This document shows, piece after piece, positions 54,880-55,359 of a stretch of 64,000 nucleotides of DNA (position 1 is the stretch's first letter; the number at the start of each line of letters is the position of its first letter). Source of the DNA: Escherichia coli. Lineage in GTDB: Bacteria > Pseudomonadota > Gammaproteobacteria > Enterobacterales > Enterobacteriaceae. The stretch lies in assembly GCF_003334305.1 (NCBI RefSeq), contig NZ_QOWS01000013.1. The stretch is one strand, 5' to 3'. A model generated the notes under the pieces. It was not told the origin of the DNA and searched no databases. It worked only from the letters and a program-made list of their open reading frames with translations. Both the position numbers and the translations under genes were made by a program.

Positions 54880-55359
54880 TTATTTGCATGAATATACAAA
54901 CCGAAAATAGGAGATGCAATACAAAAGCTGTGGAAATATCAAACAGCCTCTCAATTTGGCAGACAGCGTCTGCCAAATCTTTGCCGATGGGAATTCTGCA
55001 GATGGTGTCTGCGGAATTCCCAATGGTGTTAATTCGCCAGACACTGTCTGGCGAATTTCAACATGTTGAAAAAAGAGGTAAAAAAGCCTCATTTGGCGTA
55101 AGTTTTTTGCAGAGAAACCACGCTTATACCTTAGACTTAAATCCTTTGATAGTCGCTTGATTAGCTGCGCACCATACGCAGCCCTGGCCTCGCCACCTTG
55201 TTCAAATTCGACAATTCGTCGGCCAATTTCCCAGTATGTCGCGGTCATCAGCGCGTTAACGCTACGTACCGTTTCCGTCCGGGCGCTATCGACCAGGTGA
55301 ATAATACCGTCATGGATTTGCTGGTAGCCTGTTGAGGTTCTCTCTGAGAGCGATTCCAT
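54880..55359 (-). pseudogene. yhcG: yhcG (DUF1016 family) N-terminal fragment, truncated
   Basis: 159-codon ORF whose first ~136 residues (MESLSERTSTGYQQIHDGIIHLVDSARTETVRSVNALMTATYWEIGRRIVEFEQGGEARAAYGAQLIKRLSKDL…) match the N-terminus of YhcG as I recall it; after …SAKL it runs into unrelated sequence and stops, whereas intact YhcG is ~375 aa. Confidence 0.6.

Follow-up and report, generated by a model that had tools for sequence, protein, structure and literature searches.

In-frame or hairpin-forming palindromic DNA has been described in several systems. The Rickettsia palindromic elements (RPE), reportedly described by Ogata et al. as 'protein-coding palindromes', resemble the locus presented here in that palindromic DNA is translated in frame as part of functional proteins, at places where additional residues are tolerated. 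RPE are mobile repeats of 100-150 bp found in many unrelated genes of one genome, whereas the unit in yhcG is 25-40 bp long and occurs in one gene family, at one homologous codon position, in both bacteria and archaea. Coding palindromes, i.e. perfect inverted repeats within coding sequence, are also known from the mitochondria of Nematomorpha, where they are long and lineage-specific (PMC6649704). There too both arms are translated, and secondary structure and protein must be reconciled; the nematomorph repeats reach 284 bp, are numerous and genome-wide within one lineage, and lie in conserved protein regions, whereas the YhcG unit is short, single or present in a few tandem copies, specific to one family, located in a predicted disordered linker, and built of arms that co-vary across phyla. 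In E. coli, template switching at quasi-palindromes is well established as a source of mutations (PMC7202029), and the arms of inverted repeats are homogenised and extended by it (PMC8604942, PMC13100816). The quasi-palindrome hot spots of E. coli (PMC7202029) and of yeast genes (PMC8604942) are alike in showing multi-base changes that make the arms complementary, but they concern mutational events in the laboratory or on short time scales, and no coding palindrome at one site of a family across domains was described. REP/BIME sequences are likewise short palindromes able to form hairpins; they are extragenic, present in hundreds of copies and of a different consensus, whereas the YhcG unit is intragenic and restricted to yhcG. 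Among these closest analogues, none is a short, family-bound palindrome at one codon position that co-varies across phyla and archaea.

The host gene is known from other contexts. DUF1016/YhcG proteins occur in defence islands, type I restriction loci, prophages, and conjugative elements (PMC9881135, PMC4316617, PMC11341870), and DUF1016 is mentioned as a neighbour of shufflon-type targets, and nothing more, in a paper on programmed inversion (PMC9881135). In E. coli O157:H7, yhcG is one of six LSPA-6 typing loci, for which the typing papers give amplicon lengths of 394 and 392 bp with no reference to palindromes (PMC3514354, PMC8733641). A search of full-text literature pairing DUF1016 or YhcG with 'palindrom' found no description of the feature, which is real, statistically very strong, and apparently unreported.

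The window (the whole 64-kb stretch of E. coli DNA that was analysed) includes a locus with the gene order nanK, nanQ (yhcH), a 471-bp low-GC segment, the 5' part of yhcG, gltD, and gltB. The features of yhcG are as follows.

54954..55359, minus strand: remaining 5' part of yhcG, codons 1-135, encoding DUF1016_N (alignment and RefSeq annotation)
55031-55057, minus strand: palindrome unit 1 in translation order, EIRQTVSGEL; perfect arms of 13 nt, centre of 1 nt
54989-55021, minus strand: palindrome unit 2, GIPQTPSAEFP; arms of 15 nt with 2 mismatches
54954-54978, minus strand: palindrome unit 3 in translation order, KIWQTLSAKL; perfect arms of 11 nt, centre of 3 nt

The three palindromes read ATTTGGCAGAC-AGC-GTCTGCCAAAT (54954-54978), GGGAATTCTGCAGAT-GGT-GTCTGCGGAATTCCC (54989-55021), and AATTCGCCAGACA-C-TGTCTGGCGAATT (55031-55057), as determined from the sequence and with a repeat finder, and all are held in frame by the minus-strand ORF 54880..55359, which is translated as ...ELTPLGIPQTPSAEFPSAKIWQTLSAKL. 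The initial annotation had placed three palindromes with these arms in the yhcG frame and had given the peptide that they encode, and both statements were confirmed by the sequence, the repeat finder, and the translation of the ORF. The units are spaced 39 and 39 nt apart (13 codons), and the core CAGACNNNGTCTG, with up to one mismatch, was found within the 64-kb window at the three array positions only. Each is a coding palindrome in the strict sense, an inverted repeat inside the intact frame of a conserved gene with both arms translated, and the array as a whole is a VNTR, consisting of head-to-tail units whose copy number varies between strains. Tandem Repeats Finder made no call on the array, because its units are merely ~73-78% alike. 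Folding of the block as RNA, which the initial annotation had proposed, gave strong hairpins (-61.8 kcal/mol, z = -7.1, 0/200 shuffles as good), and the single units folded as DNA gave -11.1 to -13.1 kcal/mol (z = -5.8 to -8.0 relative to shuffles).

The same three units are present in the full-length K-12-type yhcG (375 aa), where they are followed by uninterrupted coding sequence. This, together with the absence of copies outside the yhcG locus in E. coli, is the outcome that the initial annotation had named as refuting, and the idea of a local insertion, or of an element that came with the truncation, was therefore abandoned. Unit 1 of the window corresponds by homology to the lone copy in O157, Salmonella, and Citrobacter and to that of the DUF1016 family. 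The O157 yhcG (349 aa), with one unit, is exactly 78 bp shorter than the K-12-type gene, or two 39-bp units; other Escherichia alleles of 362 and 370 aa have two units and alleles of 375 and 382 aa have three, and Salmonella and Citrobacter yhcG have one each. The palindrome units explain the length polymorphism of yhcG that is used for O157 typing, in which the lineage II allele presumably differs by 78 bp. The 39-bp E. coli VNTR CVN001 was considered as an identity for the array and was rejected, as its primers had no match in the window.

Copies elsewhere in the genome, for which the initial annotation had proposed a search, were looked for with one unit. A BLAST query with a 35-nt unit hit a median of 3 and a maximum of 6 places per E. 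coli genome, which excludes an identity with REP/BIME. The four places in K-12 match the three internal units and one copy on the 3' side of yhcG, and no copy lies outside the yhcG locus in E. coli. The extra K-12-type copy is located 12-22 nt past the yhcG stop codon, in frame with yhcG, and reads FQRFRILQTVSAES. In view of its 11/14 identity to the FQRIEILQTVSGES segment in a different class of alleles, the 3' copy was interpreted as a relic of a DUF1016_N fragment and not as a separate element; the window has lost it by deletion. Over most of the gene, E. coli yhcG alleles share 93-100% identity; the exception is nt 205-420 (44-81%), a hypervariable segment of ~200 bp that is centred on the palindromes in an otherwise almost invariant gene. 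Residues 79-101 fall into two classes that are common to Escherichia, Salmonella, Citrobacter, and Pseudocitrobacter, and the flanks follow genus.

The host gene encodes a DUF1016/YhcG PD-(D/E)XK nuclease, and the K-12-type orthologue matches DUF1016_N at residues 19-184 (E 1.2e-36) and YhcG_C at residues 208-360 (E 1.6e-56). It also matches PADLOC PDC-S02, a candidate class of single-gene phage defence, with a best profile E of 2.2e-131 over residues 9-370. An AlphaFold2 model built from a 25-sequence alignment (mean pLDDT 74) contains confident N-terminal helices at residues 9-96 as well as the nuclease domain; in residues 100-131, the stretch encoded by the three units, pLDDT drops below 50 and the model shows no secondary structure. 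The location at a module boundary proposed in the initial annotation agrees with this model, in which the predicted disordered residues 100-131 separate the N-terminal helices from the remainder of the protein. Foldseek comparison with the PDB gave weak PD-(D/E)XK matches to MGME1, NucS, Bax1, and Hjc, all with E >= 5e-3, and no informative match for the N-terminal domain. No YhcG relative was found in PDB sequence searches with the single protein or a profile, and YhcG had no match in NCBIfam.

The DUF1016/YhcG nucleases, which are uncharacterised, form a very large family: YhcG has 21,155 relatives among 50%-identity cluster representatives (E <= 0.001). Eighty DUF1016 loci, 37-94% identical, were picked by protein similarity alone using a 10-sequence alignment; the 25-sequence alignment was used for motif and structure work. 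The loci are from Proteobacteria, Acidobacteria, Verrucomicrobia, Bacteroidetes, Planctomycetes, Cyanobacteria, candidate phyla, and five archaeal lineages. A blind scan of 367 kb from these loci for perfect palindromes (arms >=9 nt, loop <=7 nt) returned 101, and 58 of them fell into one 100-nt bin of the gene (nt 300-399), which makes up ~2% of the sequence but holds 57% of the palindromes. The arms of the family palindrome range from 9 to 21 nt around a centre of 1 or 3 nt, and at loci that failed the perfect-arm criterion 8-11 of 12 positions are still paired. The consensus unit is 5'-ATT NNN CAG ACR N YGT CTG N'N'N' AAT-3', which encodes I-x-Q-T-x-S-[AG]-[EKQ] at codons ~102-110, at the start of a variable, predicted-disordered linker that precedes the conserved LSWSHY helix. 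In 25 diverse members the QTxS motif follows a conserved '..FY..YP' and stands before the very length-variable linker ending in 'LSWSHY'. In minimal archaeal and Bacteroidetes proteins the unit, with its nine coded residues, is the whole linker. Four distant members that lack QTxS were also examined: three have linker palindromes with other cores, such as GATTCTCCACAC-gct-GTGTGGAGAATC or three copies of TCCACAAC..GTTGTGGA, and the fourth (L132) had no linker palindrome. The array in the window consists of diverged tandem copies of one ancient in-frame unit that occupies the same site in bacterial and archaeal genes; the main point that the initial annotation missed is that the palindrome belongs to the DUF1016 family as a whole.

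Outside this site the palindrome is scarce. The 80 loci contain 76 family-like palindromes, 71 of which are placed between nt 230 and nt 520 of a DUF1016 gene, and this confinement is incompatible with a mobile in-frame palindromic element of the RPE or MITE kind. Copies outside the gene are present at 4/80 loci, those in E. coli and at L060 being read as relics of DUF1016 genes; with so few such copies, a promoter operator was also rejected. Viral contigs gave 40 matches to the pattern, 24 in DUF1016 genes and 3 in DUF1016 fragments, and the non-DUF1016 viral matches are best explained as generic or chance palindromes (an obvious terminator in L123, for example) and not as a dispersed phage element. 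A segment shaped by DNA symmetry, and not by protein function, is included in DUF1016_N alignments and profile models.

The property that is conserved inside the predicted disordered linker is the self-complementarity of the DNA and not the peptide. For 77 loci each protein was held fixed and its codons were redrawn from the gene's own usage in 200 shuffles. The mean best arm in the shuffles was 4.8 nt compared to an observed median of 11 nt, and in 51/77 loci the observed arm length was reached by 0/200 shuffles. The variable triplet after ATT pairs with three bases in the [AG][EKQ] codons; in enterobacteria the pairs TGG/CCA, CGC/GCG, GTG/CAC, CTC/GAG, CTG/CAG, and CCG/CGG make up six fully compensated states (W..AK, R..GE, V..AQ, L..GE, L..AE, and P..AE). 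Switches across the family are those that pairing predicts: CAG..G encodes Q..A/G, GAG..C encodes E..R, GCG..C encodes A..L/R, and TCG..A encodes S..N/I, and further paired peptide variants include IFQSVTGKL and ISESLIRKS. Changes on both sides were seen in 10/11 pairs, in 223 cells compared to 58 +/- 6 in shuffles (97 instances), and pairing amounts to 83-99% at positions 2-12 from the centre and less than 50% from position 13 (110 instances); both instance sets were pre-selected for pairing, so the per-position percentages are partly circular and the synonymous shuffle is the non-circular test. The centre is a strand-symmetric R-N-Y and falls on codon position 1 in 102/110 instances. At a site that played no part in instance selection, the third base of the Thr codon, a purine stands in 82/82 cases compared to 44% gene-wide.

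The reading that we favour, with a probability of roughly 55%, is that an ancient tandem unit has been kept by selection at the DNA level and also serves as a preferred end point for breakage and joining. Selection would act on the capacity of the DNA to form a hairpin or cruciform, and not on an mRNA stem or the peptide. Fold-back template switching would supply the concerted changes of both arms and probably also accounts for the arms having grown to 15-21 nt in some lineages, and the capacity for hairpin formation may make the palindrome a preferred end point for illegitimate joining as well as for breakage. It is from the near-universal retention of the palindrome, which includes the minimal proteins, that we infer selection for the hairpin and favour it over neutral self-perpetuation. 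A palindrome of the 12-1-12 form cannot pair to its centre as a hairpin, so that template switching or recognition of a symmetric duplex fits the innermost position better. A palindrome that persists at one codon position across phyla, and whose arms co-vary even at the cost of amino-acid changes, constitutes unusual evidence for selection, or for a directed mutational process, acting on intragenic DNA structure.

In the window, the end-point part of this reading concerns the junction between yhcG and the segment that replaces its 3' part, for which the features are as follows.

54483..54953, strand not applicable: 471-bp low-GC replacing segment (alignment), present in 719-720 of 5426 complete E. 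coli genomes
54486..54571, strand not applicable: left end of the insert, ~77% identical to stretches of Klebsiella plasmids annotated as IS66-family transposase
54543..54798, strand not applicable: stretch of the insert with 85% identity to Klebsiella plasmid DNA (sequence match)
54561..54863, minus strand: 101-aa ORF, 'transposase' in RefSeq annotation

The last base homologous to full-length yhcG is 54954, the outer base of unit 3, as determined by alignment with K-12-type and O157 loci; the sequence is common through the outer arm ATTTGGCAGAC... and unrelated beyond it. A megablast search found the yhcG locus in 4328/5426 complete E. coli genomes and the arrangement of the window in 720, and in most other genomes homology begins at query base 475, which is window base 54954. 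The statement in the initial annotation that YhcG homology ends right past the last palindrome thus holds to the base. RefSeq labels the remnant as an incomplete 'DUF1016 N-terminal domain-containing protein', and its open frame continues into foreign DNA to 54880. The 471-bp segment stands in for the 3' two-thirds of yhcG, the downstream palindrome, and the yhcG-nanQ spacer. The Klebsiella plasmid counterpart of the 256-bp stretch at 54543..54798 sits just 3' of an IS110-family transposase gene, the left end at 54486..54571 has 1-3 weaker copies in other E. coli genomes, and the 101-aa 'transposase' ORF had no match in Pfam or NCBIfam. From these similarities we read the segment as a probable composite mobile-element scar, which would have taken the place of the last two-thirds of the gene, with the join at the outer base of unit 3. 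Locally, the observation is accounted for by a three-unit array of a family-wide coding palindrome adjoining this putative scar.

A junction at the edge of the palindrome could also be a coincidence, which we regard as a real possibility although not the favoured one. The truncation is a single ancestral event common to 720 genomes, two other E. coli truncations (L005 and L006) end away from the palindrome, and the scar fragments are related to IS66 and IS110 neighbourhoods, elements of which kind could delete adjacently at any point. Yet the junction is exact to the base, and the chance of falling within +/-1 nt of one of the six arm ends is ~2% for a gene of 1128 nt, by a post hoc estimate. 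Other DUF1016 fragments likewise begin or end at the palindrome: the fragment upstream in L054 ends just after its own palindrome, the relic in L060 precedes the start codon by 40 nt, phage contig L124 has a pair of identical fragments, each starting at the palindrome, on either side of a 1.3-kb cassette that adjoins a tyrosine integrase, and the DUF1016_N relic 3' of E. coli yhcG also ends or begins there. At least ten PDC-S02 profiles are N-terminal only, and their matches to YhcG end at residues 101-115. The module boundary suggested by the initial annotation is in this respect borne out as a recurrent end point of rearrangements, in the window, the K-12-type 3' relic, L054, L060, and L124. 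The evidence that the palindrome is a preferred end point is suggestive and not conclusive. Hairpin-forming DNA is known to be fragile, with which a break-point role is in agreement. The palindrome also offers an explanation for the frequent annotation of DUF1016 genes as N-terminal fragments. The observations linking it to break points comprise one ancestral event common to 720 genomes and a handful of fragments.

As for why the palindrome persists, an alternative of some weight, though on balance doubtful, is that it perpetuates itself neutrally, with intrastrand template switching in a tolerant linker continually copying one arm onto the other. Complementarity, growth of the arms, and multi-nucleotide changes that look compensatory would then be sustained with no function behind them. 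The template switching known in E. coli (PMC7202029), and the homogenisation and extension of arms to which it leads (PMC8604942, PMC13100816), would provide the mechanism. Perfect arms range from 9 to 21 nt and often reach a single central base, the core drifts (CAGAC, GAGAC, GAATC, CGAC, CACAC, CACAAC) while the symmetry stays, and the coded segment is predicted to be disordered. Loss would be irreversible under neutrality, yet all similarity-sampled loci that retain the region have the palindrome or a near-perfect version of it, and short palindromes are normally prone to deletion, which further argues against a neutral origin of this retention. The minimal proteins, in which the linker has been trimmed to the palindrome alone, still keep it, and the invariable purine at the third base of the Thr codon (82/82, outside the selection positions) is likewise not expected from neutral copying.

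Selection at the DNA level could take a more specific form, in which the hairpin or cruciform is a functional cis-acting element recognised by the Hjc/restriction-like YhcG nuclease itself or by a structure-specific enzyme of the host; we consider this rather unlikely. If it were true, a candidate defence nuclease could have its activity or expression tied, through such recognition, to what the cell's DNA is undergoing (replication stress, phage attack, supercoiling), and the structure could drive diversification of the adjacent hypervariable segment, with its two allelic classes across enterobacterial genera. The gene family would then have had a nucleic-acid structural element of its own since before phyla and archaea exchanged or inherited it.

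A hairpin in the mRNA of the coding region, controlling a potentially toxic nuclease by translation pausing, RNase processing, or attenuation, was judged to be less probable again. The block does give three strong RNA hairpins (z = -7.1), and tight control would be sensible for a single-gene candidate defence nuclease of the PDC-S02 class. Imperfect pairs show no enrichment of G.U, however: at positions 2-12 of 110 instances (~1200 pairs) the non-Watson-Crick cells comprise 13 G.T, 25 A.C, and 65 other, and a selected RNA stem was rejected because G.T is rarer than A.C. In the 12-1-12 forms, complementarity moreover reaches into the part that a hairpin would need as its loop. A promoter and terminator scan gave nothing, with no U-tract or terminator-like site on either strand at 54300-55600, which removes an intrinsic terminator from consideration, and the palindrome block had no match to the Rfam 15 covariance models at E <= 1; both results count against the mRNA reading.

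A symmetric duplex-DNA site for a dimeric protein, whether YhcG itself, a regulator, or a recombinase, is improbable. Such a site would account for base conservation within each half-site, which is concentrated at positions 1-5 (AGACA) and 10-12 (ATT), roughly a helical turn from each other, and for the strand-symmetric R-N-Y centre, and the C-terminal domain has a restriction-endonuclease/Hjc-like fold (PMC1189080). Middle positions that are not contacted need no complementarity, yet they are 83-97% paired; tandem copies in one gene have different triplets, each internally complementary; symmetry is kept in distant members with entirely different cores; and copies outside the gene are rare (4/80 loci), those examined being read as relics of DUF1016 genes and not as operators. 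The crossover regions of serine and tyrosine recombinases are 2 bp or 6-8 bp, unlike the 1- or 3-nt centre found here, and this centre together with the variable arm sequence led to rejection of a site-specific recombinase core site (hix/gix, dif, attC). Of the proposal in the initial annotation that the array is an in-frame palindromic element, or a recombination or protein-binding site at a boundary, the in-frame character and the boundary location stand, and a simple protein-binding site is unlikely, because the variable triplets of the tandem copies differ and are nevertheless internally complementary.

Selection on the peptide motif I-x-Q-T-x-S-[AG]-[EKQ], with palindromy incidental, is scarcely credible: the motif does lie at a fixed position beside conserved helices and is retained even in minimal proteins, yet this reading is largely refuted by the synonymous shuffles, which never reproduced the palindrome in 51/77 loci, the rare codons TCT (Ser), ACA (Thr), and ATT (Ile) are used even in GC-rich taxa, and the peptide varies freely while the DNA remains paired (ISETVSRKS, IRATLSLKS, IRSTLSNES, IFQSVTGKL, EILHTLCGES).

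Within E. coli, a few mismatches have been left uncorrected, namely CAC against GGCGAA in unit 1 of K-12 and the two mismatches in unit 2 of the window, which suggests that the constraint in this species is weak or is shared among the copies of the array.

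Alleles of yhcG in E. coli were found to be 93-100% identical outside, and 44-81% identical inside, an approximately 200-bp segment around the palindromes, which was delimited as follows:

yhcG nt 205-420, window about 54954-55155 (part present): variable segment, from the K-12-type locus L002, the O157 locus L003, and the further yhcG loci L004 and L010.

Residues 79-101 of the protein fall into two classes, NLRQMR.FY and NLWQ[FI][KR].FY, both of which are common to Escherichia, Salmonella, Citrobacter, and Pseudocitrobacter, and the flanks of the segment track genus. A second tandem palindromic unit often carries AAA...TTT, not ATT...AAT, as its outer triplets (L013, L054, L021, and other DUF1016 loci) and then encodes K-S-[QE]-T-x-S-x-I. 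This swap is fully compensated in both arms, and the arrangement of a normal followed by a swapped unit recurs in distant lineages. An open reading frame on the opposite strand was also considered:

Window 54888-55160, + strand: antisense ORF of 90 aa across the palindrome block.

Its peptides (IWQTASAKS, ILQMVSAEF, and IRQTLSGEF) nearly match the sense ones, which follows directly from the palindromes and does not point to a gene.

Boundaries at the palindromes were also seen in an IMG/VR contig, L124:

L124 4690-4880 and 6010-6200: two near-identical DUF1016_N fragments.
L124 6534-7598: tyrosine integrase gene.

Each fragment begins at a palindrome pair, and a 1.3-kb cassette of two ORFs separates them, an arrangement that looks like an insertion into, or a duplication of, the palindrome region. 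In a PADLOC search with YhcG of L002 as the query, many profiles of the candidate defence class PDC-S02 were N-terminal-only (107-193 positions), with matches that stop at YhcG residues 101-115. Since several contigs, L102 and L039 among them, end at the palindrome or just past it, part of this pattern could reflect assemblies that break at the hairpin.

The segment that replaces the 3' part of yhcG (window 54483-54953) is a mosaic. Its left end has about 77% identity to stretches under IS66-family transposase annotations, and its middle has 85% identity to Klebsiella plasmid DNA adjoining an IS110-family transposase. Its 101-aa ORF, named "transposase" in RefSeq, had no Pfam or NCBIfam support. 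One further feature falls in the part of the insert for which weaker copies are found at other sites in E. coli genomes:

Window 54524-54563: inverted repeat GGCACAGAGC ... GCTCTGTGCC inside the insert.

Beyond the 3' end of the intact gene, a fourth palindrome was located that is deleted in the window:

L002 about 1738-1762: palindrome ATTCTGCAGACAGTGTCTGCAGAAT, flanked by the stop codons of yhcG and nanQ.

It is in frame with yhcG, 12-22 nt past the stop codon, and its translation, FQRFRILQTVSAES, is identical at 11 of 14 positions to the FQRIEILQTVSGES segment of another yhcG allele class. The palindrome is thus a DUF1016_N fragment relic that lies between two convergent genes. On the other side, yhcG directly adjoins gltD in the window (55360-55542) and in L003, and is flanked in L002 by yhcF and an IS5-disrupted yhcE; the gltF-yhcA-F block is thus a presence/absence polymorphism.
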